64,000 bases of DNA, from contig OZ242005.1 of NCBI GenBank assembly GCA_965204725.1, positions 1-64,000 of the forward strand, in the 5' to 3' direction. This DNA comes from Candidatus Latescibacterota bacterium (GTDB lineage Bacteria > Latescibacterota > UBA2968 > UBA8231). Of this stretch, positions 15,285 through 34,110 are shown piece by piece. The position numbers and the translations under genes are program-made. Under the pieces are notes generated by a model. The model did not search any database, had not been told where the DNA came from, and worked only from the letters and a program-made list of their open reading frames with translations. The number at the start of each line of letters is the position of its first letter. Position 1 is the stretch's first letter.

Positions 15285-18248
15285 TTAGCTGGGAGCGAGT
15301 AGGTCGTCTAGGCTGCGGGCAATTCGGTAGTGCGCCGGGGATTCGCTCACGTTAAGCGCGGCAAAGTGCGCCTTGCCACACTCGATCTTGGCTCTTTCGG
15401 CATCGCGGAGATCGCTGGCGAACAGGCTGGCCTTCGTTTCGACTACAAAATACAGCCGCTCGCCTTCGTCTTTCTCAACGATCACGGCCCAGTCCGGGTT
15501 GTAGCTTCCAAGCGGCGTCGGCACCGTGAACCATCCCGGCAGCTTGGCGTACACCTTGACCTCCGTGCTGTTCGCCAACTCCTCGGCAAAGGATTTCTCA
15601 ACTTCGGAGTCGTACACTACCTGATCGTACACGGACTTCGTCGCGTCCGAAAGTACGTTCTTCATATAGCCGGTCAGTTCCTCGTTCTCAAAGAGTTTCT
15701 GTGCATAGTAGTACTCGTCTCCGAGGCGCTGGTACTTAACGCCATCTACCAAGGCGAGGCGCTTGCAGCGGTTGATAGCTTGCGCGGCGAGTTCGATAAA
15801 TTGTTGCGGGTTTCGCTTGAAATCGGCGAGGCGTGCGCTCTCACAGAGAATGCGCTGTATGCTGCGGCGCGTGAGTTGCGTCCGGTCCTGAAGCTCAGTG
15901 AGCACATCGGGTAGCTCTATATCGTCTTCGTCTAGCACCACGGAGGCTGCCCCCTCGCGTTCGGTCGCCTCGACTCCTGATTGGCCGATGGCGATGTCGG
16001 CTTTGCGCCACTGGATCCGGGGCCTAGGGATCGGCGGTGCATCGTCAAGTGCTTTGATGCACTGTGCGAGCAGGTCTTGGTTGTCGAACTCGACGCGGTA
16101 CGTGGTCTTGTGTTTGATGCGGTCCCACAGGGCCTTGAACTCCGGGCTGTGGAGTACGGCGCGGCGCGGGCGAATTGAGCAGCGCTCGTCGGCGTTTTTG
16201 ATTGTCAGACGCCCGGCGAGTTTGCGTAGCACCTTAGCGATCTCTTGGCGCTGCTCGGCGAATTCCTCGGGTACGCTGAGGGTATCGTCCTCAAGTGCCA
16301 CTCGGAGCGCGTCCTCAATGCGCCCGGTCGCGTCGATATACCCCTCTGCTTTCAGATGGTCCCACACATTCTTCGACGCTTCGGAACCGAGAGCCGTCGT
16401 CTGTCCGTCCGCACCGACGACCGGAATAGCCGCAAACTGATGCTCCTCTACGACGCCAAAGCGGATGCCGGTGTCGATCTCGATTTCCTGTTGGAGGTTC
16501 TCGGCAAATTCTTCGTAGCTCTCCGTAGCAATGACCGTGAGCATATTGACCCCAAAGCCGCGCTGCCGCTCTCCTTTTTGATTGACGCACAGGCGCAGGC
16601 CGCGTCCGATGGTCTGCCGCCGCTCCCGCTCGGTGCGAATGTCGCGGAGCGTACATATCTGAAAGACGTTGGGGTTGTCCCAGCCTTCGCGCAAAGCCGA
16701 GTGCGAGAAGATGAACTTGAGTGGCGTCTCTAGGCTCAGGAGCTTCTCTTTGTCCCGCATGATCAGGTTGTAGGCTCGTTCGGCGTTGTCGCGATTGGGC
16801 TGGTTGTTCTCGGCGGTATCGGTCCAACCGCCCTTCTTGTCGATGGAGAAATAGCCGTTGTGGACATCCTCTGCGCTCGCGGCGGCAAGGAGGCTCTGGT
16901 AGTCTGGATGCTTGGCCAGACGCTGATACTCTTCCTCAAAAATTCGGGCGTAGTCGCCCTTGACCGGATACCCCTCGGCGTCGTACTGCCGGTAGCGGTC
17001 CACCGCATCGATGAAAAACAGGCTGAGCACCTTGATCTCTTGCGGGCGCAGGCACTTCTCTTTGTCGAAGTGCTCGCGGATGGTGCGGCGAATCATCTCG
17101 CGCTGGACAGCGAGAGTATCCACATCGCCGTAGGCTTCTCCCAACCGGAGAAAGTGCTCGCCACCGGGTACGCGCAACTCGACGAATTCGTCGCCCCTTT
17201 TGACGCGAATCTCGCCAATGCGGCAGTTGTGGTAGATCGCACGTCCGGTGGTTTGTTCGAGATCGTCGCCATCTTGGACCATGGCTTCCCGCCGCCGGAC
17301 CCCAGTCGTCGTTTCCATGTCGAGTTCGACCTTGGCGCTGATCGTGCCGCGCTGGTTGCGCGTTGACACTAGGCGGACGTAGGGCTTGTTGTGGGCGTCT
17401 TTGACCGTCGCCGATGCTACCTCAATCTGCTTGACCAACTTGCGCTCGTAAGCATCTACCGCATCGAGCCGATAGACCATGTGATGCTCGTTGGCGTGTG
17501 TCGCCGAGTAGCGCAGTGTGCAGAGGGGGTTCATGGCGATGAGGGCTTCTCGGCCGCGCCCCTGCAAACCGCCATCTACACTCTGCGGCTCATCGACGAT
17601 CAGGATGGGGCGCGTGGCCCGGATTAGATCAATCGGCTTTTCGCCGCCCGTCTTCTCGCTGTCCTTATAGAGATTGTTGACGTCCTTTTTGTTAATAGCA
17701 CCGACCGTTACCACCATGATCTGAATCTGCGGACTGGTGGCAAAGTTTCGCACTTGACCGAGCTTGGCCGAGTCGTAGAGGAAGTATTCAAAGGGCGTAC
17801 CCGAGTAGAGTGCCCGGAAGTGGTCGTCGGTAATCTGGAGCGACTTGTACACGCCCTCCTTGATGGCGACTGAGGGCACGACGATGACGAACTTGGTGAA
17901 GCCGTAGCGTTTGTTTAGCTCGAAGATGGTGCGTAGGTACACATAGGTCTTGCCGGTGCCAGTCTCCATCTCCACGGTGAAGTCGCCCGAATCCAAGGCG
18001 GCTGAAGGGGACAAGCCGTTGCGGAGCTGGACATCGTTGAGATTGGCGAATATCTCCTCATCGGGCAGGTTTAGGCGATTGCCGGTGCCCAGATCGCTTT
18101 CCGCAAAGCCGAGGCCAGCCTGAGCATCCGCCGCATTGCGTACGACTGTGAATTCGGTGCGGCAGACCTCTTGGCCGCGAAACAGGTCGCAGACGGCTTC
18201 GATGGCTTGGAGTTGGTAGTCGAGATTGGGTTCAAAGTGGAGTTTCAT
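15285..18248 (-). CDS. res: Type III restriction enzyme Res subunit
   Basis: EMETGTGKT, DEPQ, ALREGWDNPN and QTIGRGLR helicase motifs; C-terminal NPDW...ETK nuclease. Confidence 0.93.
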   Translation of the reverse strand: MKLHFEPNLDYQLQAIEAVCDLFRGQEVCRTEFTVVRNAADAQAGLGFAESDLGTGNRLNLPDEEIFANLNDVQLRNGLSPSAALDSGDFTVEMETGTGKTYVYLRTIFELNKRYGFTKFVIVVPSVAIKEGVYKSLQITDDHFRALYSGTPFEYFLYDSAKLGQVRNFATSPQIQIMVVTVGAINKKDVNNLYKDSEKTGGEKPIDLIRATRPILIVDEPQSVDGGLQGRGREALIAMNPLCTLRYSATHANEHHMVYRLDAVDAYERKLVKQIEVASATVKDAHNKPYVRLVSTRNQRGTISAKVELDMETTTGVRRREAMVQDGDDLEQTTGRAIYHNCRIGEIRVKRGDEFVELRVPGGEHFLRLGEAYGDVDTLAVQREMIRRTIREHFDKEKCLRPQEIKVLSLFFIDAVDRYRQYDAEGYPVKGDYARIFEEEYQRLAKHPDYQSLLAAASAEDVHNGYFSIDKKGGWTDTAENNQPNRDNAERAYNLIMRDKEKLLSLETPLKFIFSHSALREGWDNPNVFQICTLRDIRTERERRQTIGRGLRLCVNQKGERQRGFGVNMLTVIATESYEEFAENLQQEIEIDTGIRFGVVEEHQFAAIPVVGADGQTTALGSEASKNVWDHLKAEGYIDATGRIEDALRVALEDDTLSVPEEFAEQRQEIAKVLRKLAGRLTIKNADERCSIRPRRAVLHSPEFKALWDRIKHKTTYRVEFDNQDLLAQCIKALDDAPPIPRPRIQWRKADIAIGQSGVEATEREGAASVVLDEDDIELPDVLTELQDRTQLTRRSIQRILCESARLADFKRNPQQFIELAAQAINRCKRLALVDGVKYQRLGDEYYYAQKLFENEELTGYMKNVLSDATKSVYDQVVYDSEVEKSFAEELANSTEVKVYAKLPGWFTVPTPLGSYNPDWAVIVEKDEGERLYFVVETKASLFASDLRDAERAKIECGKAHFAALNVSESPAHYRIARSLDDLLAPS

Positions 18249-19252
18249 AGTGCGTTTTCTATGATGCCCCAGCGTCTGCTCCCGGAACGCGTCTGGCGGT
18301 CACAGAGAGCGAGTAGCTCTCTGTATCGGGTCGGAAAAATAGATTCGGGAATGATTTCAAACTGGTATCGGTCTGAGCCCGTTCTATGAAAGAGAATAAG
18401 GCATGGGCGATCTCGGTATTCCAACTCATTGATGACGAGACGGATGGTGTCGTTTTCAAATAGCCTCATCTTTCGGCTGCGAGCTGACTGGCATCCCTTC
18501 TCAGTCAGTGTGATTACTTTGGAACATTTGAATTCAAAAAATTCTCTCGCGGCTTGGACCGGAAGTTGAATCTGCTTGCCATTAGGACCGGTTTCCCTAG
18601 GCATGATCTCAATGACGAGATCGCCAGAATTAGCCAACTCTCGATCTGTAACAGACGGCTCCTTCTTCGCGCCCCAAGTAAATGTTGTCTCCCTAGATAC
18701 CATGCGGCTTTGCTCAAATTTACTACGGTCACGCTGGTAAGATTTTAGGATTTTATTCGTCAGTGCGATGCTCCCCGCATGTACCTCCTTTGCCCAATTC
18801 CGAAGATCTGGAGGGGCACCGCTACACCGAATGGTCACAGCAAATTCGATGTTGTTGATTAGTCCATCGCGAGTGAGATTGTTACTACCAACCCACACTC
18901 GGCATCGTGTAGAGCGATCGAGCCATACAACCTTCGGATGAAATACGCCCCGATAGTTGCTCATAAGGCGAACAGTGACGTCGTCATCAGCCATGGCTTT
19001 CAACCCTTCCGGATCTGTGATCGCGTGATCCGTTCCAACATACGCAAACACTTTACGACGCCGATCGAATTTCAGCCAGCTCAAAATACTCCCGCGAATC
19101 TCATCCCACCCTCGCTTCGTTACGGCGTAAAAGTAGAGACGTAGCTGCGCGTCTCCTTTCTTCCGATCTTCCTTCAACGTCGAATTCAGCGAGTCCCTAA
19201 ACTCAGCTACCTTCCACGTTGAGAAAGACCCTGTAGGGAGATGACTGTTCAT
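18245..19252 (-). CDS. PLD-family (HKD) nuclease, BfiI/NgoFVII-like, inside the type III operon
   Basis: FHPKVVWLD and VGSNNLT...NIE motifs; overlaps the res start by 4 bp. Confidence 0.7.
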   Translation of the reverse strand: MNSHLPTGSFSTWKVAEFRDSLNSTLKEDRKKGDAQLRLYFYAVTKRGWDEIRGSILSWLKFDRRRKVFAYVGTDHAITDPEGLKAMADDDVTVRLMSNYRGVFHPKVVWLDRSTRCRVWVGSNNLTRDGLINNIEFAVTIRCSGAPPDLRNWAKEVHAGSIALTNKILKSYQRDRSKFEQSRMVSRETTFTWGAKKEPSVTDRELANSGDLVIEIMPRETGPNGKQIQLPVQAAREFFEFKCSKVITLTEKGCQSARSRKMRLFENDTIRLVINELEYRDRPCLILFHRTGSDRYQFEIIPESIFPTRYRELLALCDRQTRSGSRRWGIIENAL

Positions 19253-19255
19253 CGG

Positions 19256-21205
19256 TTAAAGACTCCTGATATTTGTCACGCCGGACTGCTCCAGCACGGC
19301 GGTTAGATTTAGCTTTGCTCTATCGTCAACAAAGCCGCTGTCTCGAAAGATAACGATGCTCTCACTGGACGGAGACAGTTCTTTTTGCCACGCTGAGATG
19401 CCGAGCCCGAGTTGCTGAGCTTCTTCCGGTGTAAGATCATGCCCGAAGCAGGCAAACAGCATTCCGGCACCGACTGAGTATATAGTCCGTCCTGCGATCA
19501 CTCGAGATTCGATGGAAACACAAAGATCGAGCCCCATCTTCAACATGAGTTCAAAAAGGAGGTCGTAGCCGGTTCGGCCTTTCTTTATATTTTCTGCATG
19601 CTCAAAGATGGATTGCTTGAGATTGTCAGGCTTAGTGATCCAAGATTGAATGTTTGAGGTATCGAGCTTGAGGACTAAAAAGCCAAAGTCGCCTGATAAA
19701 AGCGGTGTTTCTTTTTCGATTTGTTTCGCGGATCTGCGTAGTCGCTCTTTCGTCAACTCCGCTAGGTTGCGGGGGCGTCCAATTTGATCGCAGAAATCAG
19801 CTCCAACCACCTGAGCCTTGTCTTTCATATCGAGCGGTTGGGGCAACTGCACTAGGATGAAGCGCCGCGAGCACGAATCTTCAGCATTTTGCCGCCAGAC
19901 GCCTGAAGCCGTCGTCCCTGAGCCGGCAAAGAAATCCAAAATAATATCGTCCTCCCGCGAAACGGCCCTTATCAAGTACTTGAGCAAGCCTTCCGGCTTG
20001 GGATAGGAGACAACATCCGCGCCAAAAACTTCTCGTATCTGCTGAGTGGCATCTTCATTGGTCTGAACGGCGTTGATTCTGTAGGAAAGAAGGTTCGCTA
20101 TCTTCTTCTGTTCACCCGACTGATTCACGTAGTTGGGACGAAACGGAATCCTGCTAATGAGAATCTCTGCGCCGGCAGCTACGAATTCGTTGAGTTTGGC
20201 TTGCGAGTACCGCCATTCCCCAAGTAGCCGAAAAGCATTGCTGTTTCTTCCTTTTACAATGTGAACATCGTCGAGCAATACGGTCTTGATGTTCCCCTCA
20301 GACATGTCTTGGGCTGTAACGATCTGATCGTTGATCCCGAAGATCACGCTTGCCGCAGGAAATTCCAACACAGCCATGTTGTTGCCCGCATTGTTAAAGG
20401 GATATTTCTTTTCGTTTTCGACCGATCCAGTTGTAAAGGCGGGGGATTGTGAACGGTCTTTTGCATAGGCGATAATGTAATCCGTAACTGTGCCCATGTT
20501 CCGATCCAAAAAAGAAGGTTTCTTCTTTTTTTCCCATATAAAGGTGCCGCAAAAATTTTCGTAGCCAAAAATTTCGTCACAGACTACTCGCAGATTGTGC
20601 AATTCCTCGTCTCCTATGGATATGAGTATTATACCGTCACTTCTCAGCAAATTCCTTGCTACCTTCAAGCGTGGATACATCATGTTCAGCCAGTTCGTGT
20701 GGAACCGCCCCGATGCCTCCGTATTCGACGACAATTTCCGGTTATCGTCGTCGGTCTGTCCCGTCAACTTCTGATAATTCCGTATGCTGTCCCGGTAGTC
20801 ATCAGGATAGACGAAATCCTTCCCCGTGTTGTACGGCGGGTCAATGTAAATCAGCTTAACCTTCCCGGCGTAGCTCTTCTGCAACAGCTTGAGCACCTCT
20901 AGGTTATCGCCCTCAATCATCAGGTTTTGCGTCGTGTCCCAATCGACGCTTTCCTCTGGGCAGGGGCGCAAGGTGCCGGTCGAAGGCGTCAGGGCAAGCT
21001 GCCGCGCCCGGCGCTTGCCGTGCCAGTTGAGGCCGTACTTCTCCTCGCGATCGTCTATCTCGCCGCCCAGAAGCTGCTTGAGCACCTCAAAGTCGATCTT
21101 GTCCTCAGTAAAGGCTTCGGGAAACAGGGCCTTTAGGTGTTCGATGTTATCAGCCACAATGTCCGCCGAGCGCGTCTCTGGGTCGTTGGCAATGAGTTTT
21201 TGCAT
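19256..21205 (-). CDS. mod: Type III R-M Mod subunit (m6A methyltransferase)
   Basis: IEGDNLEVLKLL, IYIDPPYNTG and DFFAGSGTT motifs. Confidence 0.93.
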   Translation of the reverse strand: MQKLIANDPETRSADIVADNIEHLKALFPEAFTEDKIDFEVLKQLLGGEIDDREEKYGLNWHGKRRARQLALTPSTGTLRPCPEESVDWDTTQNLMIEGDNLEVLKLLQKSYAGKVKLIYIDPPYNTGKDFVYPDDYRDSIRNYQKLTGQTDDDNRKLSSNTEASGRFHTNWLNMMYPRLKVARNLLRSDGIILISIGDEELHNLRVVCDEIFGYENFCGTFIWEKKKKPSFLDRNMGTVTDYIIAYAKDRSQSPAFTTGSVENEKKYPFNNAGNNMAVLEFPAASVIFGINDQIVTAQDMSEGNIKTVLLDDVHIVKGRNSNAFRLLGEWRYSQAKLNEFVAAGAEILISRIPFRPNYVNQSGEQKKIANLLSYRINAVQTNEDATQQIREVFGADVVSYPKPEGLLKYLIRAVSREDDIILDFFAGSGTTASGVWRQNAEDSCSRRFILVQLPQPLDMKDKAQVVGADFCDQIGRPRNLAELTKERLRRSAKQIEKETPLLSGDFGFLVLKLDTSNIQSWITKPDNLKQSIFEHAENIKKGRTGYDLLFELMLKMGLDLCVSIESRVIAGRTIYSVGAGMLFACFGHDLTPEEAQQLGLGISAWQKELSPSSESIVIFRDSGFVDDRAKLNLTAVLEQSGVTNIRSL

Positions 21206-21341: not shown

Positions 21342-22589
21342 CTACCGCTCCCACAGATCGCTCAGCGGTACGGCGAGTATGCGCTCGTCGGCCAATGGGA
21401 GTCGGTCGCGGCCGGCGTAGAGCAGCACCCCGGACTCAAAATTTTCGCCACAGCGATCGGCCAGACGCACGAGCCCCCGCCCGTCTTTGGCGGTGAGCGC
21501 ACCGGCGGCCTTGACCTCAATACCCCAAGTCTTCCGACCCTGAGTAAGCACTACATCGACCTCCACCTGATCCTTGTCGCGATAGTGCCAGAAACGCAGA
21601 TCCGGCTCTGTCCACGTGGCTTGGGCTATGAGTTGTTGCACCACAAAAGATTCCAATAGATGCCCCATGCGGTCCCGATGGTCGAGCCAATCGGCCGCAG
21701 TTAGGTCGGCGAGGGTCGCCGCCAGCCCGCTATCGAGCAGATGGATCTTCGGTGTTTTGACGAGTCGTTTGGCCGGGTTGCGATGCCACGCGGGCAAGCG
21801 TCGCACCAGAAAGAGCCGCTCGAGTACGGCGATGTAGTGCTCTACGGTCGCCCGGTGCAGGCCGAGGCTATTGGCCAGATTGCAAGTGTTCAATAGCGCG
21901 GCGTTGCGCTGAGCCAGCAATTCCAGCAGACGAGCCAATTCGCTAGCATCCCTCACCCGCGCCACGTCTTGCACATCCCGCTCGACGATGCTGCGTACAT
22001 ACTGCCGGTGCCATTGCCGGGCGCGGCTGGGCGTACGGGTCAGCGGCTCGGGATAGCCGCCGGCGACCAATCGCTCGGCCAGCGGTGGGCCAGCAGGCTC
22101 CGTCGCGGGCCGGATACCCGCTTTGAGCGCACCGTTCAACAGGTCGCTGAGGAAGCACCCAGGCTGACGCATTTTTTCTGATTCGGTCAATGGGTACAAC
22201 TGCGCCATTTCCATCCGCCCTGCCAGCGATTCGGTAACGGTCGGCACCAGCAATAGATTGGCCGAGCCGGTTAACAGGAAACGCCCGGGACGGCGGTCCC
22301 GATCGACAGCGCGCTTGATGGCCGAGAGCAGCACCGGCACCCGTTGCACTTCGTCCAAGGTCACCGCCTCCGGCAAGCTGGCTACGAAACCGTCCGGGTC
22401 GGTCCCAGCGGTCTGGTAGTAGTTGTGCTCGTCTAGGCTGACGAATGCACGGTCCGGTGCGAGCTGCTGCACGAGCGTAGTTTTCCCACTTTGCCGCGGC
22501 CCGAGCAGACAGACCACCGGCGTATCGGCCAAAGCCTCGCGGAGGACGGGGGCCAGCGAGCGGGGAAACAGGGAGCAGTCGGCGTCCAT
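21342..22589 (-). CDS. AAA_14 ATPase with DUF4143 and a C-terminal PD-(D/E)xK-like domain
   Basis: GPRQSGKTT, LDEVQ, LTGSA, ESLAGR and EVDVV...IEVK motifs. Confidence 0.88.
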   Translation of the reverse strand: MDADCSLFPRSLAPVLREALADTPVVCLLGPRQSGKTTLVQQLAPDRAFVSLDEHNYYQTAGTDPDGFVASLPEAVTLDEVQRVPVLLSAIKRAVDRDRRPGRFLLTGSANLLLVPTVTESLAGRMEMAQLYPLTESEKMRQPGCFLSDLLNGALKAGIRPATEPAGPPLAERLVAGGYPEPLTRTPSRARQWHRQYVRSIVERDVQDVARVRDASELARLLELLAQRNAALLNTCNLANSLGLHRATVEHYIAVLERLFLVRRLPAWHRNPAKRLVKTPKIHLLDSGLAATLADLTAADWLDHRDRMGHLLESFVVQQLIAQATWTEPDLRFWHYRDKDQVEVDVVLTQGRKTWGIEVKAAGALTAKDGRGLVRLADRCGENFESGVLLYAGRDRLPLADERILAVPLSDLWER

Positions 22590-22641
22590 TTGTCGGTTAG
22601 ATTAGCGTCCAATTGTCGGTTAAGGGAGCGTCCAATTGTCG
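22582..22641. repeat. Three direct repeats with 23-bp period (GCGTCCAWTTGTCG core)
   Basis: Units start at 22582, 22605 and 22628; the first overlaps the AAA gene start codon. Confidence 0.85.
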
Positions 22642-22744
22642 AATGGCAATCTAGCGGAAGGGGACGCGGCGAGCAAGATGAAAGGCTGAAGTCGGCTGGA
22701 TCGAACAGGACTACGACCGGGCGGGACCCGGCTCGCCCATTCGG

Positions 22745-23296
22745 CTATTTGGCCATCACTTGGGCCCGGATGAGCCGGAATAGTTCCGCTTGGTACTCAG
22801 CATCGCGCAGGGCCGTGTGATTGGGTTGCCGCCGTGGTTGTAATGCGGCCGCCATGCGGCTCGACCGAGTATCGGCCCATTGACAAGCGGTAGCCCCCAT
22901 GTAATAAGCTTTGATGTCTAGCGCAGAGAAGCCAAACGGATTTTCTCCAATAAACAGATGGAAATAATGGTTCACAAAGGACCAGTCGAACGGTGCATTA
23001 AAGCCGACGAAGACCAGCGTCTCGCCCCCGCGGACCAGTCCTTTCAGCCAATCGGCAAACCGCTTCATAGCCTCTTCCGGTGCCAAGCCCGTCCGCTCTA
23101 GGGCTTCGAGAGACAGCCCCGACACCTTCAAGGCCATCGGATCGGCGTTGCGGTTGAGCGGCTTGAGTTCGCAGGCGAATGTCAGGCTTTTGTCGTCAAC
23201 GACGCAGGCACCAATTGACAGCAGGCTAAACTCTATGGGAATTGGTCCCGCCGTTTCGACATCGACAGAAACGAAAATCTCGCGTTGGTCGGTCAT
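22745..23296 (-). CDS. cap18: DEDD 3'-5' exonuclease, Cap18-like CBASS accessory protein
   Basis: SVDVETAGP, FNAPFDW and HTALRDA motifs; ATGA overlap with the upstream effector. Confidence 0.75.
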   Translation of the reverse strand: MTDQREIFVSVDVETAGPIPIEFSLLSIGACVVDDKSLTFACELKPLNRNADPMALKVSGLSLEALERTGLAPEEAMKRFADWLKGLVRGGETLVFVGFNAPFDWSFVNHYFHLFIGENPFGFSALDIKAYYMGATACQWADTRSSRMAAALQPRRQPNHTALRDAEYQAELFRLIRAQVMAK

Positions 23297-24459
23297 GGAA
23301 TCAGAGGCTCCACTGGTACGAGAGGAGGTCGGTTTTGGATTGTGGCCCAATGCGCCCGGAAAGCTTGTTGTCGATCCTCAATCGTTCCGCTTGTCTTCCA
23401 GTGCAGTGCCGCTAGGGTGGAAATGTCGAATGGGTGTTGGTTGCCTTCCTTAACCATGAGCATCGTTGGCAAACCGCGCCCGAGCGCATAGCCGAGTTCT
23501 ATAAAGCAGTTGGGCCGCATGCCCGTGATGTCAGCCAGCACGACGCTGCTACGGTGGAGCTTCGCGAAGATCTCTTGGTCAATGCGAGCGTACTCGTATG
23601 GCTGCGAACCGTCGATTACTGTCATCTTGTAGCCAAGTTCGTCCTCGACGACCGGCTGCACCACCTCTTTGAAGAAGGTTTCGACATCCTCGTAGTCTTT
23701 ACACTTGGGATTAAGTAATCGCACGACGAAAGCTCGAGGTTTTTCCAAGTTCTCAAGAAGGTCGCTGATCGCGCTTATACGCTTGCAGACCGGCTTACGC
23801 GATGTGAAGTTGATGCGGTTGATCCAAGTATGGGCACTGTGGTGAATAGTCTGAAACAGCCGTTGTGCTCGCGTACTGTCTAAACCAGAGGAGAACAGTC
23901 GGCGCGCACCGGTGTCGGGCGATGTTATGCGGGCGTTCAGCGGCACTACAGGCTTGCCAGCATCATGGTATAAATTGGCCAAAAACAGGACTCCGTCCGA
24001 ACCTCCGAGCGCGATGAGGATGTCGCCCCGCTGAGCCTGCGCCTCCATCCGCTTGCTGTTCATGTTCCAGTGGGAGACATTTTCGATATGGACGAGATCG
24101 GACGTCCGTAGGTCATCCCAGAGTTGCTCAAACTCCGGCGGAATTTGCTCTTCATTCTTGTGGTGCTGAACGGCGATGGCGAGCGGATCGGGTGCGCTAG
24201 AAGGTCGGCGAGCAAGGTTATCGTATAACGTCTTCCAGATCAGCCAGTCGAAGCAAATCGGCAGATCGTCGCTTTCCCGCAACTTCTCGGCGTCGACCGG
24301 CACGACAAAAGTCGCTCCTCGCTTGATAAGGTCAAGAACCAATCCTTTCACCAGTTTACGTGCTGCTTGGACTTCGCCGAAAGTCGCCACCGACGCGTCG
24401 CACGAGATGCTGCCCGCGATATGGATGCGGCGTCCGAATAGTGAGGACCTAGCCATCAC
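23293..24459 (-). CDS. CBASS effector: N-terminal SLOG (TPALS/Cap17-N-like) plus C-terminal nucleoside 2-deoxyribosyltransferase/TIR-like domain
   Basis: RIHIAGS and LIALGGSDGV (SLOG); ADITGMRPNCFIELGYALG (NDT/TIR-like, conserved Glu). Confidence 0.7.
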   Translation of the reverse strand: MMARSSLFGRRIHIAGSISCDASVATFGEVQAARKLVKGLVLDLIKRGATFVVPVDAEKLRESDDLPICFDWLIWKTLYDNLARRPSSAPDPLAIAVQHHKNEEQIPPEFEQLWDDLRTSDLVHIENVSHWNMNSKRMEAQAQRGDILIALGGSDGVLFLANLYHDAGKPVVPLNARITSPDTGARRLFSSGLDSTRAQRLFQTIHHSAHTWINRINFTSRKPVCKRISAISDLLENLEKPRAFVVRLLNPKCKDYEDVETFFKEVVQPVVEDELGYKMTVIDGSQPYEYARIDQEIFAKLHRSSVVLADITGMRPNCFIELGYALGRGLPTMLMVKEGNQHPFDISTLAALHWKTSGTIEDRQQAFRAHWATIQNRPPLVPVEPLIP

Positions 24460-25355
24460 AGACCTTCTACGACGGGCGACGACCTCATGTTAGCAGCAAC
24501 GGTTTGAAGATCGTCGAAACAAAGCGGACGATCCGGGAATGCCGACGCTAAGGCACTCGGATAAAGCCGGGTGCGGATGTCCGAGTAGGTCCAAGTTGGC
24601 TGGCCTTCTCCCCGAGCACCTGTGATTTTAACCAGAGAGTCAAGTTGGTCCCCCGTCAGCGAGAGTGCCGCAAGATCCATGTCGAAGAGTTGCCGACGTT
24701 CTTCCTCTGACGGACGCGTGAATTCCTCGATGACCGAGGCGCGTCGCTGAAGAGCGGGGTCCAGTGCCAAAGCACGGTTCGTGCAAAAGAAGGCAACAAC
24801 CCGTCCGCCAAAGCACCGTAAATGGTCAATCTTCTGAATCAAAGTGTTCACAGCGACCTTATCTTCGTGGTGGCTATGATCCTGTGAGCGAGCCGCGGCG
24901 AGCGAGTCGCCTTCGTCAATAATAAGAATAGCGCGACGACCTTTGCCTGCCGACTTGGCCACTTGTTCAAACGCTTCGATGATCAATGTTCCCATCTCGC
25001 CGACCTTGCCGGCCCCACGGACGCGGTTGCCTAACTTGAAGAGGACCGAGTCTTCCGTTTTACTCTCTGTGATCAAACGGTTTGCAATGCACTCGGCCAT
25101 CACGGTCTTACCAGTTCCGACGTCGCCGTGGAAGATCACGAGCGGGTATTGCTCAGTGACGAGATCGCATAGGGCAAGCTGTCCGTCGTGGTGCTTTTGG
25201 TTCCACCGGCTTAAATCGCTCGTGCTCAACAGCAGCCGCAGTGAGTTGCGGACTCGGTTGTAGCGAACCTCGAACCCCAGCAAGGTCTTTTCCTTAGCCG
25301 CAAGCCTAGCGTCGGGCAGAGGCGTTTTGCTCTCGAAGATATCAGCCTTATTCAC
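24456..25355 (-). CDS. cap6: TRIP13/Pch2-like AAA+ ATPase (CBASS Cap6)
   Basis: GDVGTGKT, IIDEGDSL, TNR...LDPALQRR; GTG start overlaps the HORMA stop. Confidence 0.85.
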   Translation of the reverse strand: MNKADIFESKTPLPDARLAAKEKTLLGFEVRYNRVRNSLRLLLSTSDLSRWNQKHHDGQLALCDLVTEQYPLVIFHGDVGTGKTVMAECIANRLITESKTEDSVLFKLGNRVRGAGKVGEMGTLIIEAFEQVAKSAGKGRRAILIIDEGDSLAAARSQDHSHHEDKVAVNTLIQKIDHLRCFGGRVVAFFCTNRALALDPALQRRASVIEEFTRPSEEERRQLFDMDLAALSLTGDQLDSLVKITGARGEGQPTWTYSDIRTRLYPSALASAFPDRPLCFDDLQTVAANMRSSPVVEGL

Positions 25356-25846
25356 GAGGAGAAATCCTTTCGCTGCATTCCCCACCCGTTGCTCGAGTAG
25401 GTACGCCCGCCGGAATGGATGAGGCCGGAATGGCTGGTATCGGCTCTGGTCGGAACCCATTTGCATTTGAGACTGCTCTTCATCTCCTCTCTAGCGGTGG
25501 CATTATAGGCGTCAGTGTACCTCAATATGATTCGGAAGTCGGGACTTTCAACGCTAGGCCACAAAACCCCGCCCGGGCGGCTCATCTCTAGGTCGCCGTC
25601 AGAAGTGTTGACGATATATTGCACAGCTTGAACCTCGGTTGATCCGGAGAAAAGCGTGAGATCAACCATCTTCAGATACATCTTCTTAGCTAGCACCTCG
25701 ACGTCATGCGCGTAGTCAAGGGCCTCTTCCTCAGTGATCGCGCCGGAACTCTGGGCGATCATCACGAGGTCGGCAGTAAAGCGCCGCACGACCGTTTCGA
25801 TGTCGGAAATCGTGTAGGAATAGGTGTCAGTTGCTGTATAGGTCAT
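25352..25846 (-). CDS. cap7: Bacterial HORMA domain protein (Cap7)
   Basis: Thr/Tyr-rich N-terminus (TYTATDTYSYT), ADLVMI, RPGGV and YSSNGWG resemble HORMA1; sits between the CD-NTase and TRIP13. Confidence 0.8.
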   Translation of the reverse strand: MTYTATDTYSYTISDIETVVRRFTADLVMIAQSSGAITEEEALDYAHDVEVLAKKMYLKMVDLTLFSGSTEVQAVQYIVNTSDGDLEMSRPGGVLWPSVESPDFRIILRYTDAYNATAREEMKSSLKCKWVPTRADTSHSGLIHSGGRTYSSNGWGMQRKDFSS

Positions 25847-25850
25847 ATTC

Positions 25851-26795
25851 TCAATCCCCGATTTTGAAGTGGGGTCCGAAGAGTTCCTTCCAAACTTCGT
25901 TGTCGTTCTCGACGGACGCGAAATTGGCTGTCTCCCAAGCTGCTTTTGCGGCTTTGACGATCTGCTGTCGCTCTGACTCCGTGATGCGGGCGGCAACATT
26001 GTTGCTACTTTGAACTGGGTCAAGTATCACGACCGGATCGTAGAAGGGGCCGATAGGTCCGGTGTTCTCAGGGAACTGGATGACATCTTTCAGTCTTGAC
26101 TGAGCTATGTAGAGCAAGAAGCGACGAAATCGCTGTTCTATTGACTCTTTCGCTCCCCCTTTATCCAAGAGGTAGGCCAGAATGAGTTCGATCGCGAACG
26201 ATTTGAGTGGCTTCAGTTCGGCGTGGTTGCGCCATTTCTTGGCGAGACGGACCAAGGTACGGAAGTGCTTGTCCTTGTCCTTGCGGTTTTGAACGAACTG
26301 AATCTGGCAGGGGGCGCATGTCTGCACCTTGGAGCCATCCTCCAAGTCGAATTGCCAGCCGTAGTCGGGTCGGGCTTTGTCTTGGATCACTGGGACTACA
26401 TCGACATTGAGTCCGCTGCCAACGAAGGAGACTTTGGTCGCCTTTCGCTGGATTTCAAAGTCTCCCACATCCTTGTTGGGATAGATCTTGATCAGCAACT
26501 CATGAATCGAGTCGTTCAGACTTTTCAAGGTTTTTTGACCGACACTCCGGTCGAAAATATAGAAGACGACATCTACATCAACCGGATCCTCGGATGTTTT
26601 CCTAAGGATAGTGAACTTGGCAAAGGATCCTGCCTTCACCGTCTTAGTGATCCTGACGTCGATCTTATCCCGGATATCCTCTGTGAGTTTATCAATGAGA
26701 AAACCGACCTGTCTGTGATACTCCTTCCGCTTGCTATCGGGCAGGCGAAGAACGTTGCTGTCGTAATAGCGAAGTTGAGAGTTGGTCAGCGACAT
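25851..26795 (-). CDS. CBASS CD-NTase (cGAS/DncV-like cyclase, CdnC-like)
   Basis: AGSFAKFT, DVDVV, DVVPV, LVRLAKKW, SFAIEL and DPVQSSNNVA motifs; GAGGAGG RBS. Confidence 0.9.
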   Translation of the reverse strand: MSLTNSQLRYYDSNVLRLPDSKRKEYHRQVGFLIDKLTEDIRDKIDVRITKTVKAGSFAKFTILRKTSEDPVDVDVVFYIFDRSVGQKTLKSLNDSIHELLIKIYPNKDVGDFEIQRKATKVSFVGSGLNVDVVPVIQDKARPDYGWQFDLEDGSKVQTCAPCQIQFVQNRKDKDKHFRTLVRLAKKWRNHAELKPLKSFAIELILAYLLDKGGAKESIEQRFRRFLLYIAQSRLKDVIQFPENTGPIGPFYDPVVILDPVQSSNNVAARITESERQQIVKAAKAAWETANFASVENDNEVWKELFGPHFKIGD

Positions 26796-27005
26796 GAATA
26801 CCTCCTCTAGGTGCATCTATGCGATGATAGACACCAGTAAACGGGGAAAGACGAGAGCGACGCGATGAGTTTGCCCATCGGTAGAGCACCTACTAGCCTC
26901 GGCATAATTGCTCGCGCCAAAGTTGCCAAAAATATCATTTCTCAAAAAACAGAAAGAATGTTATCTTTGTCAAGAGATCAATCAAATGCCCCACGAGGAG
27001 AAACA

Positions 27006-28139
27006 ATGACTGCTGAAGCGCACATTGCCGCGAATGTCGCCCGACTGCGGCTGGACCGGCAGTTGACCCAAGAGGAACTCGCTCGCAAGGCGGGGCTTTC
27101 GCGGATGGCACTCGGAAAGATCGAGCGAGGCATCGTCGTCCCACGCGCCCGGACCCTCGCCGCGCTAGGGGACGCGCTCGGCGTTCCGCTCGGCGATCTA
27201 GTGACGCCTGTGCAGCCTCTTAAGACCGTGCGATTCCGCGCCCAAGCACGGGTCCACGCTCGGGCGCAGATCTTGGCCGAGGTCGCAAAGTGGCTCGACG
27301 CCTATACTCAAGTCGAGGCCGATCTCGGCGAGTCGTGCCCCTTCCAGTTCAAGGCTGTTCGCATTCAGCCTAGGAGCCCGGAGAAAACCGCACAGGCCGC
27401 ACGCAAAGCCATCGGGCTTGGGCCGGAAGAGCCGGTGCTCGACATCTGCGGGCTGCTCGAAAGCAGCGGAGTGAAGCTATTGTTCCTCGTTAAAAAAAGT
27501 GACTCCTTCTTCGGACTAAGCGTCGGTGCAGAGGATGGCGGCCCTGCCGTGGTGGTCAATACTTGGGAGCGGATCTCGGTAGAACGTTGGATCTTTACCG
27601 CGGTACACGAACTCGGCCATTTGTTGCTTCATCCGGCCGAATATCGGCGCGACGCCACCGAACTCCCCGTGCAGACAGAGCGCGAGGCCGATGCCTTTGC
27701 GAGCCACTTCCTGATGCCAGAAGCCGCGTTCGAGTCAGAGTGGGACGAGACCCGAGGGCATCCGCTCCTCGTCCGCGTCCTCAAGGTCAAGCGCATCTTC
27801 CGCGTGAGTTACAAAACCGTGCTCTATCGGCTGGTTGAGTCGAGCCGTGAAACCTCGGATATCTGGCGCACATTCCAGCACCAGCATCGCAGTTATTTTG
27901 GCAAGACGCTTCGCAGGACCGAAGAACCCGAAGCACTTAAAAGAAGCGAGTTCGCTTGGAATTGGAGCCGCTCAGGTGAGCCAGAGGGCCTCTCTCGGCA
28001 CGACTTTGTCGAGAACCGCCTCTCTCGGCTCGTGCGACAGGCACTTGAACAGGAGCATATTTCACTCGGGCGTGCCGCCGAGATTCTGAGGCTGACTCGG
28101 GAGGAGATGAGGAGGCAGGCACGTGAGTGGGTGGGGTAA
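27006..28139 (+). CDS. XRE-family HTH fused to an ImmA/IrrE metallopeptidase
   Basis: LTQEELARKAGLS..IERG HTH; FTAVHELGH and EREADAFASHFLMP; GAGGAG RBS. Confidence 0.88.
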   Translation: MTAEAHIAANVARLRLDRQLTQEELARKAGLSRMALGKIERGIVVPRARTLAALGDALGVPLGDLVTPVQPLKTVRFRAQARVHARAQILAEVAKWLDAYTQVEADLGESCPFQFKAVRIQPRSPEKTAQAARKAIGLGPEEPVLDICGLLESSGVKLLFLVKKSDSFFGLSVGAEDGGPAVVVNTWERISVERWIFTAVHELGHLLLHPAEYRRDATELPVQTEREADAFASHFLMPEAAFESEWDETRGHPLLVRVLKVKRIFRVSYKTVLYRLVESSRETSDIWRTFQHQHRSYFGKTLRRTEEPEALKRSEFAWNWSRSGEPEGLSRHDFVENRLSRLVRQALEQEHISLGRAAEILRLTREEMRRQAREWVG

Positions 28140-28145
28140 GTGGCT

Positions 28146-28326
28146 ATGGCCCAGACTGTGCTTCTCGCCGACGCAGAGCCTCAGTCTCATGGTAGATCTG
28201 GTTGCTGTCGGTTCCCTCACGCGGCGGCGTGCCATAGCTATCGCTCGCCAAATCCAAGCGTCGAATCCGCTTCATATCAATGAGCGAGTACTTCAGCGTT
28301 TTTTGGGAGCTATCGAGAAAACTTGA
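28146..28326 (+). pseudogene. Probable PIN-domain toxin remnant with an internal deletion
   Basis: PIN-like start MAQTVLLADA joined out of frame (~28176) to a C-terminal helix LSLMVDLVAVG...INERVLQRF; directly downstream of the IrrE gene. Confidence 0.5.
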
Positions 28327-30845: not shown

Positions 30846-31774
30846 GAGGCTGTCTGAAAACTCCATTTTCTATTTGATTCTTTTGAGTAACAGGTGGATC
30901 ATAGCAATCTGGATCAAGGCTTCGCTATGGCGGGTCAACACCTCATAATCTCGGGCATGACGGCGCGAGTTCATCACCCATGCCAAGGTACGCTCGACGA
31001 CCCAACGGCGTTTGAGTACGGTAAATCCGGGGCCTTGTTTGGCGACGACTTCCAAGTCAATCTTGTGCGTCTTTTTTAGGTTGGCCACCCATGTTCGGAT
31101 CGCCTCGCCTCGATAGCCGCCATCGCCCCACAGTTTGCGTAACCGGGCTACGCCGGACGTCCCCAAGCGGGTCAACACCTGCTGCAAGCCGTCTCGATCG
31201 GATACATCGGCGGCGGTGACCACCACCTGTCGAAGCAAGCCTGAGGCGTCGACCAGCAGATGCCGTTTTCGGCCTTGAACCTTCTTGCCCGCGTCGTAAC
31301 CGGTTGTTTTACCATGGGTTGCCGTTTTGATGGTCTGACTATCGATACAGCCCGCCGAGGGCGTGGCCGGCCGGCCGTTGCGGCGGCGTTCCTGCTGGGT
31401 GAGCCGTTCCAACACCCGCGGCCAGACCCCGTGCCGGCTCCAGCGACGGAAGTAATCATACACCGTTTTCCACGGGCCAAAACAAGCCGGTAACAACGCC
31501 CAAGGACACCCCGTCTTGTTCAGATACAAAAGCCCGTTGACGATCGGACGCCGATCCCGCGGCGGCCGACCCGGACCGTTGGGGCGCCACCGCGGAGCCG
31601 GCAGCAACGGTTCGATCTGCTGCCATTGCACATCGGTTACATCGGTTGCATATTGGCCACTGGGCGTACTCATCATACGAGCCTTTCTGTTCAGATTTTG
31701 TGGTGAAACCTGAATATGGCCTGATGAGTACGCCGATTCAAATACGACTACATAATGGGTTTTCAGACAGCCTC
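30846..31774 (-). mobile_element. IS5-family (IS1031-like) insertion sequence
   Basis: Perfect 15-bp IRs GAGGCTGTCTGAAAA (30846-30860) and TTTTCAGACAGCCTC (31760-31774); flanks are TCA and TTA. Confidence 0.9.
30870..31676 (-). CDS. IS5-family transposase
   Basis: TGCPWALLP, IDSQ, GRKRH.LVD, DGGY and RWVVERT motifs. Confidence 0.92.
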   Translation of the reverse strand: MMSTPSGQYATDVTDVQWQQIEPLLPAPRWRPNGPGRPPRDRRPIVNGLLYLNKTGCPWALLPACFGPWKTVYDYFRRWSRHGVWPRVLERLTQQERRRNGRPATPSAGCIDSQTIKTATHGKTTGYDAGKKVQGRKRHLLVDASGLLRQVVVTAADVSDRDGLQQVLTRLGTSGVARLRKLWGDGGYRGEAIRTWVANLKKTHKIDLEVVAKQGPGFTVLKRRWVVERTLAWVMNSRRHARDYEVLTRHSEALIQIAMIHLLLKRIK

Positions 31775-34110
31775 TTAGAAAACTGCACAGCGTATCCAAG
31801 CGACTTGCAGTTGACATACGGCGGGTTCCCAACAATCACGTCAAATCCCCCCCTGTACATGACATCGTAGAACTCGACAAACCAGTGGAAGGGCTGGTGG
31901 CTGGTACGCCATTTCTGGTAGGCAGTCTCGTCGTCAGGCTTGACGCCGTACTCGGTCGCTAAGTAGCTGTCCAGTTCGCCTCGCAATTCATCAAGCCGCT
32001 CCTTCAGTCCGACCTTTGCCGGCGCAAAGTCGCCCGAGTCCATGCCTTCATCCGTCTGCATACGCTGAAACATACGAAAGGCTTGGGCGGCGATCTCGGC
32101 GCGTTCCTCAATGCCCGGTAGAGCCAACTGCTTGATTAGGTCGCCACTCAGCATCTGTTGGATTTCCCCCAGCGAAGTAAATCCAACCAAGGTATTGCCG
32201 GCGCGGATGTTGAAATCAATGTCCGGCAGCGGCTCGATCTGGTCGTAGGTCTTCAACTGAGCGACTAACTTGAGAAACAAACGCAGCTTACATATCTCGA
32301 CCGCCTCTTCCATAATGTCCACGCCATACAGATTGTTGAGCACGATAGACTTGAGGATGAAATACCGGGTGCTGGGATGCTTCTTGACCTTCTCTAAAAC
32401 GTCCCTGAAGTCGCTGAGTGCTTTTGGATGATGAGGCCGCTCGGTCCGCTCAAGATCGTTGCGGAAGCCCTGCATTCCTTCCAGACATGCCGTGTAGAGC
32501 GGTTCAAGGATGTTTAGCGCGGCGAACAGGAACGCGCCAGAGCCGCACGTGGGATCGAGCACGGACACATCGCGCATCCCATGCCAAAACGCACGCAGAA
32601 GCTCCGGCCCTTCGCTCTGGACGATGACATCCTTTGCGAACTGTTCGATGTCCAAGTTCAGAGTGATGAGGTCGTTGACGTCTTGAACCTTGCCCGAGGC
32701 GAGTTGTTCACGGACTTCGGCGTGTCGCTGGCGGCGGGCCACCACCTCGCGCCAAGTTTCGGTAGGCAGCGCGTATTCATCAGCAGCCGGACTGTTCCAT
32801 TCACCTCGCTTGGACACATCATCGATTCCTGCGGCTATCTCCTCCGGTAGCTCAATGGGCCGTTCTAAACGCTCGGGATCGACATCCGGTGAGTATCTCC
32901 AAGCTACTCCGTGCGCCACAGCGGGGTAGATATACAGATCGGGGTCGTCCTGCAAGAGCCTCCACACGCCGCCACCCGGCGAGAACACCACCGGGCATTT
33001 CTTCTTTGCAGCATCGAAGAGGAATGGGATGACCGTGTTTCGGGTGATATAGCCGGTGATGTCCTCCTTGGTATAATAGGCCCCCATCTGCTTCTGGTTG
33101 ATGTACTTCTCGAAGATGTATCCGAGAACGTCGGGATTGATCTCGTTGTCTTCCCTGCGAGGCCGCTCGTCTAGGTGCCAGCGGTAGCCCTCAAAGAAGG
33201 TGAACACCCTCTCGAATGCCTCGTCCGGGATACTGATGTCGGGGTTGTCCCGCTCCAAATCGTGAACATCGAACAGGCCGCCGTTGAGGAACGGCACCTT
33301 GCCCAGCAACTCGGCTAGCTCGGGTGCCCTTTCGGATTCCGGCTGTCCCAGCCCTTCGTGGAACAGCCGTAGCAGGAAAATGCGATAGAACTGTTGGAAC
33401 TGCCCGGCCCCCGTCTTCTGCTGTACCATGCGCAGACGGTTGCGGAGGTAGTCGGTGTCATCATCAAGGAAACCCTGCTTCTGGACGAAGTAGATGAACA
33501 TCATACGGTTGAGCATCAAGGATGCGTACCACTCCCTGCCCCCCTGCTCAGCGATGCCATTGATGAAGCCTTGGAATGCGTCGAGTTCTTGCCTGAATCG
33601 CTCGTAGAACTGCTTGGTGACCTTTTCGACATCCATCGCCTGCTTAACCCGTGACGCGACCTTGGCGACGCCGAGACTCTCTTCCTCGTCGAGGCTAAAC
33701 GCGATTTCCCGAAGGCTTTGTAGGAAAGGATCGCCCTGCTGGCTGCTGTGATACTGTTGCTCGCGGCAGGCGTCGGGCTTGCCACTCTCTCGCCTGACCC
33801 ACTGCCTGACCAGTGAGGTGTGTTCGGCATCGACAAAGATGATAATATGCTCGAACGCCAGCTTGGCGACTCGGCGTTCTATCTTTCGTCTGATCGGGTA
33901 CGGCGGGACTAAACCGTCGGCATCCGCGCCGCAGACATAGACGACGTAACTGGCCTTCTCCGCCACAGGCTCCAGCGCGTAGTCATGCCCATCCAGCGAA
34001 ATCTGTACTGGTTCGGCCTCGTAGTGGTTCCACCCTAAGCCTTCCACGAAGAGGCCTCGGAAGTCGAAGCTATGGAGGTATGGACGGAGTTGATCGATAG
34101 TCACTTGCAT
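31775..34110 (-). pseudogene. Type IIG/Eco57I-like adenine methyltransferase truncated by IS5
   Basis: GAYYT, LDPTCGSGAFL and GNPPY motifs; the frame runs into the IS 12 codons after NPPY and no specificity domain follows. Confidence 0.8.

Follow-up and report, generated by a model that had tools for sequence, protein, structure and literature searches.

An operon of five genes, each of which PADLOC assigns to CBASS, the signaling system against phages that is based on cyclic oligonucleotides, lies on the minus strand of a 64,000-nucleotide stretch of Candidatus Latescibacterota DNA (contig OZ242005.1, positions 1 to 64,000; hereafter the window). Between positions 22745 and 26816 there are five consecutive open frames, all intact according to the open reading frame (ORF) list and a sequence check of the starts. 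They encode a CD-NTase (a nucleotidyltransferase of the cGAS/DncV-like kind), a HORMA protein, a TRIP13-like ATPase, a two-domain effector and a Cap18-like exonuclease (Table 1). The CD-NTase matches the PADLOC model PDLC00808 (E 1.7e-123) and the NCBIfam model CBASS_cyclase_a (E 6.7e-106; 354 bits, where the cut-off is 200), and its active-site stretches GS...DVDV...DVV align with those of CdnC from Escherichia coli MS115-1 (PDB 6p80, E 5.9e-38). The HORMA protein is recognized by PADLOC (E 1.1e-73) and by Pfam (bacHORMA_1, E 8.3e-46), as is the ATPase (PADLOC E 4.5e-119; Pfam AAA, E 5.8e-18), whose alignment with the E. coli protein displays GDVGTGKT and ILIIDEGD. Likewise, the exonuclease matches the PADLOC model for CBASS exonucleases (E 1.6e-86), Pfam RNase_T and the solved Cap18 structure PDB 7t2s (E 2.1e-63). 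Residues 2-387 of the effector cover positions 1-387 of the 388-position PADLOC model PDLC00733, labelled 'TIR' (E 3.6e-195), and an NCBIfam profile search returned no family for either the effector or the HORMA protein. The operon has a GC content of about 0.55, and the adjoining blocks have 0.59-0.62 and 0.49-0.50.

Because a CD-NTase with an intact nucleotidyltransferase core shares the operon with HORMA and TRIP13 genes, we assign the locus to type III CBASS. On its sequence, it appears to be a complete and apparently functional anti-phage operon of the one-HORMA kind. An earlier note on this DNA, written from the letters alone, had described a tightly coupled operon with every frame intact, and the starts, the gene overlaps and the PADLOC E values all agree with that description. 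The same cassette recurs in 80 related loci kept from 130 genomes: by tblastn at a coverage of at least 50%, all 80 have TRIP13, 78 have the exonuclease, 77 HORMA and 74 the CD-NTase; several loci in which a gene is missed are truncated at a contig end.

Table 1. Positions of the CBASS genes, the two effector domains and the surrounding features in the window
Feature	Positions	Strand	Remarks
CD-NTase (CdnC-like cyclic-oligonucleotide synthase, by sequence)	25851..26795	-	314 aa; ATG at 26795, downstream of GAGGAGG
HORMA (Cap7-like)	25352..25846	-	164 aa; ATG 4 nt past the CD-NTase TGA
TRIP13/Pch2-like AAA+ ATPase (Cap6-like)	24456..25355	-	299 aa from GTG, which overlaps the HORMA stop in GTGA
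Effector, whole gene	23293..24459	-	388 or 387 aa; GTGATG overlap with the TRIP13 stop
Effector N-domain, TPALS-type SLOG, presumed signal sensor	23755..24459	-	Residues 1-235
Effector C-domain, TIR/NDT-class N-glycosidase-like	23293..23754	-	Residues 236-388 and stop; contains Glu321
Cap18-like DEDDh 3'-5' exonuclease	22745..23296	-	183 aa; ATGA overlap with the effector stop
Divergent intergenic region, presumed promoters and operator	26796..27006	.	By position only; conserved with the closest relative, L003
Divergent HTH and M78 peptidase regulator (CapH-CapP fusion-like)	27007..28139	+	377 aa
PIN-domain gene remnant	28146..28326	+	Internal deletion; a PIN gene usually lies behind the regulator
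AAA_14 and DUF4143 ATPase	21342-22589	-	Next gene downstream of the exonuclease; matches the PADLOC candidate system PDC-S01 (E 4.9e-155)
Type III restriction-modification res	15285-18248		Defence island
HKD-like gene	18245-19252	-	335 aa; between type III res and mod
Type III restriction-modification mod	19256-21205		Defence island
IS5-family transposase (DDE_Tnp_1, DUF4096)	30870-31835	-	Beside the type IIG enzyme
Type IIG restriction-methylase ORF, truncated	31738-34110	-	Covers only 9-762 of the 1100 positions in its PADLOC model
SNF2-like gene			Defence island

The operon is best understood alongside the Cap17 CBASS of E. coli (EcPF14/upec-117). Relative to that system, protein identity is 61% for the CD-NTase, 51% for HORMA, 61% for TRIP13 and 55% for the exonuclease, and the lengths are nearly the same (314, 164, 299 and 183 residues in the window; 314, 162, 298 and 187 in E. 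coli). Both effectors carry the TPALS N-domain (PF18178), which is joined to a PNP domain in Cap17 and to a TIR/NDT-like domain here. Among the proteins compared, then, sequence comparison indicates that only the catalytic domain of the effector differs. The effector gene is also placed differently: it lies between TRIP13 and the exonuclease within the window operon, and its E. coli counterpart is transcribed divergently, together with capW. Membership in the Cap17 family was considered for the window protein and rejected: it has no PF01048, its BLASTP similarity to Cap17 ends at residue 178 and its C-domain takes a TIR/NDT-class fold. The Cap17 C-domain used as a tblastn query found nothing above noise in the window and was absent from all 80 related loci. 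Cap19 and CapW were similarly searched for in the window and rejected (tblastn, none at E<=1); Cap19, which is part of the E. coli system, was found by tblastn in none of the 80 loci (0/80), and the exonuclease is only 155 bp away from the next gene, the AAA_14/DUF4143 ATPase.

With PNP, Cap19 and CapW all absent from the window, we interpret the operon as a sister of the Cap17 system that carries another catalytic module. This is the arrangement the earlier note had envisaged when it described a type III CBASS in which a SLOG sensor with an NDT/TIR-like domain replaces the Cap17 nucleosidase, followed by a Cap18-like exonuclease without a Cap19-like gene. Its outline is borne out by the PF18178 match, the lack of PF01048, the fold searches described below and the similarity of the exonuclease to Cap18. 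The E. coli system reportedly guards against phage lambda in a CdnC- and Cap17-dependent manner, and catalytic-dead Cap17 is reported to affect that protection while the catalytic-dead Cap18 mutant D165N is not (10.1101/2022.01.04.474952). According to the same preprint, Cap19 is required for protection.

The N-domain of the effector is the presumed sensor. Residues 7-235 match PF18178 (E 1.5e-78), whose name, TPALS, stands for "TIR- and PNP-associating SLOG" and records an association with TIR. The glycine-rich loop GGxxGV is invariant or nearly so among relatives (G153, G156, V157), and over residues 12-175 the domain is 25% identical to the N-domain of Cap17, with which it has IAGS, FDW and GGxxGV in common. 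Structures were modelled by AlphaFold2 on a 67-sequence alignment, with a mean pLDDT of 95.2 and a pTM of 0.93 for the full effector. In the predicted structure, the closest fold to residues 6-240 is that of the BcThsA SLOG domain in complex with 3'cADPR (7uxs; Z 15.9, rmsd 3.4, 185 aligned), followed by SeThsA (7uxt, Z 14.2), TM1055 (1rcu, 13.8), a MoCo carrier protein (12.5) and DprA (12.5). The model places the N-domain in the SLOG superfamily, as a sensor type such as that of ThsA, and it is presumed to bind a signal.

The C-domain, modelled alone with a mean pLDDT of 96.0 and a pTM of 0.90, belongs (over residues of about 240-380) to the TIR/NDT fold class, occupied here by N-glycosidases only. 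VIA-align places MilB first (Z 13.1, rmsd 3.7, 140 aligned), followed by the SfSTING TIR (12.2, 2.5, 116), the Bacillus psychrosaccharolyticus NDT BpNDT (12.1), the Hydra TIR (11.8), the SARM1 TIR (11.4) and RCL (10.9); ThsB TIRs are also among the matches, at Z 9.2-10.0. Rows within one Z unit count as ties, so MilB and the SfSTING TIR are tied, and the predicted shape is equally near to NDT/MilB/DNPH1 and to TIR. 'NDT/TIR-like', the label used in the earlier note, is accurate. The motif quoted there, ADITGMRPNCFIELGYA, corresponds to effector residues 309-325 and includes the putative catalytic Glu321. Residues D310, T312, R315, N317, C318, E321, G323, D345 and W354 are kept in 61-67 of 67 relatives whose identity goes down to 25%; E321 is present in 66 of the 67, and D310, D345 and W354 in every one.

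Profile comparison was made against family sets drawn from genomes of the phylum (29 CAP12-PCTIR_TIR, 28 NDT and 30 TIR_2 domains) and against a diverse set of 26 NDT sequences. With hhalign, the C-domain matches CAP12-PCTIR_TIR at 93.8% (E 1.7e-7, 82 columns), NDT at 42% (narrow set) or 32% (diverse set), with E 2.6e-4 to 4.8e-4 over 43-50 columns for the two sets, and TIR_2 at 15.7%. Between the reference families themselves, CAP12-PCTIR_TIR matches TIR_2 at 96% and NDT at 0.9%. The TxxRxNxxxExG of the C-domain lines up with (T)..RxNVxxExG in the TIRs of CAP12 and PycTIR, and its T, R, N, E, G and D fall on conserved positions of that profile; the T, R and N ahead of the Glu belong to the TIR profile and are unmatched in the NDT alignments shown. 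The segment ahead of RxN...E is approximately 16 residues shorter than in the CAP12/PycTIR TIRs. We read the C-domain as a member of the TIR-DrHyd-SLOG assemblage, which was set out by the Aravind group (PMC9503650), and as nearest by sequence to the CAP12/PycTIR TIR branch. The earlier note would have taken a match to an already characterised CBASS effector as a refutation, and such a match is seen only remotely: it is a profile-profile match to the family of the characterised NADases Cap12 and PycTIR, and it does not amount to orthology.

The profile match to CAP12/PycTIR is the reason for favouring NAD+ as the substrate. TIR-STING and TIR-SAVED are described as characterised NADases in a review (PMC10419184), and the TIRs of CBASS and Pycsar are generally treated as NAD+-depleting effectors in a preprint (10.64898/2025.12.03.692087). 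Even so, we put NAD+ only a shade above an even call, and the assignment is weak. Several observations weigh against it. Foldseek ranks the nucleotide N-glycosidases first, with the CMP N-glycosidase MilB at E 4.6e-6 (TM 0.62), NDT at 3.5e-5 and DNPH1 at about 4e-4, and the TIRs only after them (MyD88 6.2e-4, TIR-STING 7.5e-4). The window effector is above the Pfam cut-off for neither family: Nuc_deoxyrib_tr (PF05014) reaches 17.2-18.6 bits, below the 28.8 required, and PF10137 (CAP12-PCTIR_TIR) gives no match to the C-domain alone even at E<=10. Among the window C-domain and its 149 best relatives, 39 of the 150 touch Nuc_deoxyrib_tr (E<=0.01), as opposed to one each for TIR_2 and CAP12-PCTIR_TIR, and three of 20 distant relatives scanned (P0254, P0264, P0269) pass the NDT gathering score. 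In addition, the sister effector Cap17, a TPALS-PNP protein reported to be an ATP nucleosidase (Rousset preprint, 10.1101/2023.01.24.525353), would by analogy point to ATP rather than NAD+; and since the window type is without Cap19, the analogy with the E. coli system is in any case incomplete.

These observations are what one would expect if the C-domain acted like MilB, DNPH1 or NDT and cleaved the base from (deoxy)nucleoside monophosphates or triphosphates ((d)NMPs, (d)NTPs) or from ATP, so that nucleotides rather than NAD+ were depleted. Such an enzyme would be functionally convergent with Cap17, whose system, according to the Rousset preprint, sets an ATP nucleosidase on the same cyclase/HORMA/TRIP13/Cap18 chassis. 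We weigh a nucleotide substrate on the structural ranking of MilB, DNPH1 and NDT and on the Cap17 precedent, to which may be added that the alignment of the ELGYA...G..P motif with Rcl/DNPH1 and with NDT falls on the catalytic Glu and that MilB has the highest VIA-align score. The NDT profile matches, however, are low and extend over at most 50 columns, in contrast to the 82 columns aligned with CAP12/PycTIR; the T, R and N before the Glu fit the TIR profile; and the lead of MilB over the SfSTING TIR is less than one Z unit, which is a tie. A nucleotide is a possible substrate that we regard as unlikely, and we hold the same opinion of a MilB-, DNPH1- or NDT-like mode of action as a whole.

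At the level of sequence, the placement of the C-domain cuts both ways. In a profile search of the PDB none of its matches is significant (Cap12 E 0.15, PycTIR 0.32, Rcl 0.34), and all of them fall on the same Glu motif; a single-sequence PDB search with the effector gave no meaningful match. The C-domain alone as query retrieves 2584 representative clusters at E<=1e-3, and 87 of the 150 domains mentioned above occur with TPALS. Distant relatives P0260, P0267, P0254 and P0269 are proteins of approximately 280-330 residues without TPALS that contain one or two C-domain-like modules, and some of these TPALS-less relatives exceed the Pfam cut-off for Nuc_deoxyrib_tr. In the ESM Atlas, the nearest clusters to the homologue P0032 have 12-26% of members with PF05014 and 12-15% with PF10137, figures that serve as leads only.

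We propose that the locus is a one-HORMA type III CBASS whose effector is a TPALS-sensed, signal-gated N-glycosidase with NAD+ as its most likely substrate, a reading that we consider probable on balance. The genes present and their coupling, the folds of the domains, the conserved residues and the recurrence of the cassette are observed here; the identity of the signal, the mode of activation and the substrate we infer by analogy with related systems. The HORMA protein would detect infection and turn on the CdnC-like cyclase, and the TRIP13 ATPase would hold the HORMA-cyclase complex off in uninfected cells. The cyclase would then produce a (cyclic) oligonucleotide that docks on the TPALS/SLOG N-domain of the 388-residue effector and activates the TIR/NDT-class C-domain, probably through oligomerisation. 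Through Glu321, the C-domain may cleave an essential nucleotide cofactor, most likely NAD+, at an N-glycosidic bond; the resulting loss of NAD+ would starve the infected cell and abort the infection. The divergent HTH-M78 protein is probably the repressor that keeps the operon silent until stress. This scheme retains the proposal of the earlier note, a cyclic-oligonucleotide-gated N-glycosidase acting on NAD+, (d)NTPs or (d)NMPs, as the best-supported mechanism, with gating and substrate still drawn from analogy.

In the same scheme, the Cap18-like exonuclease would be an accessory or regulatory partner and not the killer, given that catalytic-dead Cap18 causes no loss of lambda defence in the E. 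coli sister system. One could suppose the reverse, that the DEDDh exonuclease is the true killing effector and the TPALS-TIR/NDT protein its controlling sensor or adaptor. PADLOC labels the exonuclease 'Effector, Exonuclease', the effector and exonuclease genes overlap by ATGA and the two genes occur together in 78 of 80 loci. We find this very improbable, as Cap18 D165N was harmless to lambda protection where catalytic-dead Cap17 was not (10.1101/2022.01.04.474952), and the TIR/NDT-like catalytic set is near-invariant (66-67 of 67 relatives for its best-kept residues), which an adaptor would not need.

A further role for the TIR-like domain would be to make a second-tier signal derived from ADP-ribose, as Thoeris TIRs do, or to serve solely as an assembly scaffold. 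Thoeris TIR domains are reported to produce signalling molecules (10.64898/2025.12.03.692087), and the ThsB TIRs are found among the fold matches of the C-domain. Nevertheless, we give this view hardly any credence: the largest cluster of downstream genes is present in only 4 of 74 loci, and no conserved receptor gene is seen there; a signal synthase of its own is already part of the operon; and the catalytic residues are conserved. The figure of 4 in 74 loci also led us to reject a conserved sixth gene downstream of the cassette.

In its construction, the effector resembles Cap12 (TIR-STING), TIR-SAVED and PycTIR, which likewise fuse a signal sensor to a small N-glycosidase domain; the sensors of those proteins are STING, SAVED and a cNMP-binding domain, respectively, and that of the window effector is SLOG. 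ThsA of type I Thoeris (SIR2-SLOG) similarly uses a SLOG sensor to gate an enzyme that destroys a nucleotide cofactor, but its domain order is reversed, its catalytic domain is SIR2 and identity is only 17%. The signal comes from a TIR protein for ThsA and presumably from the CD-NTase for the window effector. MilB/BcmB CMP N-glycosidases, DNPH1 (Rcl) and NDTs, the top fold matches of the C-domain, align at the Glu in ELG(Y/R)A; they are stand-alone housekeeping or biosynthetic enzymes, in contrast to a presumed signal-gated immune effector. Retron-Eco1 also deploys an NDT-like anti-phage effector, but one restrained by a complex of reverse transcriptase and multicopy single-stranded DNA, and the two are likened by description only. 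For the retron (Ec86) effector, depletion of adenine and its derivatives is reported (10.1101/2023.08.16.553469).

In E. coli MS115-1, the type III CBASS (CdnC, HORMA, TRIP13, NucC, CapH/CapP) has the one-HORMA layout and the divergent HTH/M78 regulator of the window. Its effector is the NucC nuclease and it has no exonuclease gene; in the window, the regulator is one fused protein and is followed by a broken PIN gene. The product of MS115-1 CdnC we take to be cAAA. For NucC-type relatives, use of cAAA is stated in a review (PMC10419184).

The effector family is large. A word-indexed search recovered 1563 relatives at E<=1e-3 among 7998 candidates scored, and scanning a single genome of each species for the pattern identified the 130 genomes, already mentioned, that encode a relative. 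The 120 homologues listed are 67-98% identical to the window protein and 366-389 residues long, nearly all of them 387-388. Hosts include two Latescibacterota (84-89% identity), many Alpha-, Beta- and Gammaproteobacteria, Chloroflexota, Acidobacteriota and one Micavibrio, whose copy is labelled Bdellovibrionota in the tree. In that tree, which is quick and midpoint-rooted, the window effector groups with both Latescibacterota copies in a setting of mostly Pseudomonadota. A scan of viral contigs gave 70 pattern matches, none of which encodes a relative (0/70). Just three of 76 genomes in the taxonomic family of the window, its own included, encode the effector, and two copies (L016 and L025) are plasmid-borne; the five-gene unit is thus a mobile accessory cassette.

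The effector type is already catalogued and widespread, and the window copy is a further member of it and not a new type. The novelty implied by the earlier note is not borne out, on three counts: PADLOC v2 (2023) already carries the 388-position model under the CBASS label 'Effector, TIR', the TPALS family is named for its association with TIR and PNP and relatives are encoded in 130 species genomes. The note also knew of no biochemical characterisation, and here our literature search agrees: it found no paper that characterises the TPALS-TIR effector biochemically, within a scope that leaves subscription journals and supplements outside, where the family may already be listed.

As a single instance, the window copy adds little, and the interest lies in the chemistry of the whole family. 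This is a well-conserved and widely transferred CBASS effector with a catalytic domain between the TIR NADases and the NDT/MilB/DNPH1 N-glycosidases, a SLOG sensor instead of SAVED or STING and a Cap18 exonuclease that nearly always accompanies it. To learn its substrate, the ligand of TPALS and what Cap18 does would close a gap in the catalogue of CBASS effectors, and the same results would indicate how far TIR/NDT-class folds predict the choice of substrate. More tentatively, the C-domain could be a compact non-NADase link between TIR and NDT/MilB that removes the base of (d)NMPs, (d)NTPs or ATP once the SLOG binds the CBASS signal, with Cap18 tied to TPALS signalling. If this doubtful possibility were true, two unrelated folds, the PNP of Cap17 and the TIR/NDT of the window effector, would have been recruited by one chassis to destroy nucleotides rather than NAD+, and Cap18 might, for example, trim or clear a linear form of the signal.

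The divergent gene upstream of the operon encodes both HTH_3 (E 2.8e-12) and Peptidase_M78 (E 2e-15) by Pfam, has HELGH in its translation and matches the PADLOC models capP (E 6e-16), capH (E 2.1e-5) and RmrA (E 1.5e-37). Based on its domains and divergent orientation, we regard it as a fusion-like regulator of the CapH-CapP type; the E. coli Cap17 system has CapW in its place. HTH-M78 fusions have been noted in 15 CBASS systems, and also in a DISARM locus with a vapC-like gene, according to the Lau preprint (10.1101/2022.04.27.489752). In the intergenic region between regulator and operon no inverted repeats were found, and a promoter/terminator consensus scan of positions 22300-27100 gave nothing above shuffles.

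Among 69 related loci with room upstream, the HTH-M78 regulator is present in 42 and a PIN-like gene behind it in 39. Regulators thus appear to be swapped on one conserved chassis, with HTH-M78 and PIN-like genes in about 40 of 69 loci and CapW-like WYL proteins in only 6 of 80. In the window, the PIN gene is a remnant. The 166-residue PIN gene of L003 (Pfam PIN, E 1.5e-5) aligns with the window except for a gap of 314 bases, which is no multiple of three; all that survives is the opening codons and a C-terminal remnant that is out of frame, and the 66 C-terminal residues of the latter are 65% identical to L003.

The operon sits in a defence island. The AAA_14/DUF4143 ATPase that follows the exonuclease also adjoins the cassette in L003 (90% identity), and overall in only 3 of 80 loci. 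Farther downstream, the gene between type III res and mod has no Pfam match; it carries an HxK...GSxN (HKD/PLD-like) motif and matches the PADLOC models ZacB (4.3e-8) and DrmC (3.3e-6) weakly. On the other side of the operon, the type IIG enzyme looks truncated by the IS5-family insertion. Finally, outside the window the same genome encodes two adjacent TIR_2 ORFs (G000:C1:4756354-4757178, minus strand; E 3.7e-25 and 9.9e-24) and two more TIR_2 matches elsewhere, and these TIR_2 ORFs possibly belong to Thoeris-like or other TIR systems.

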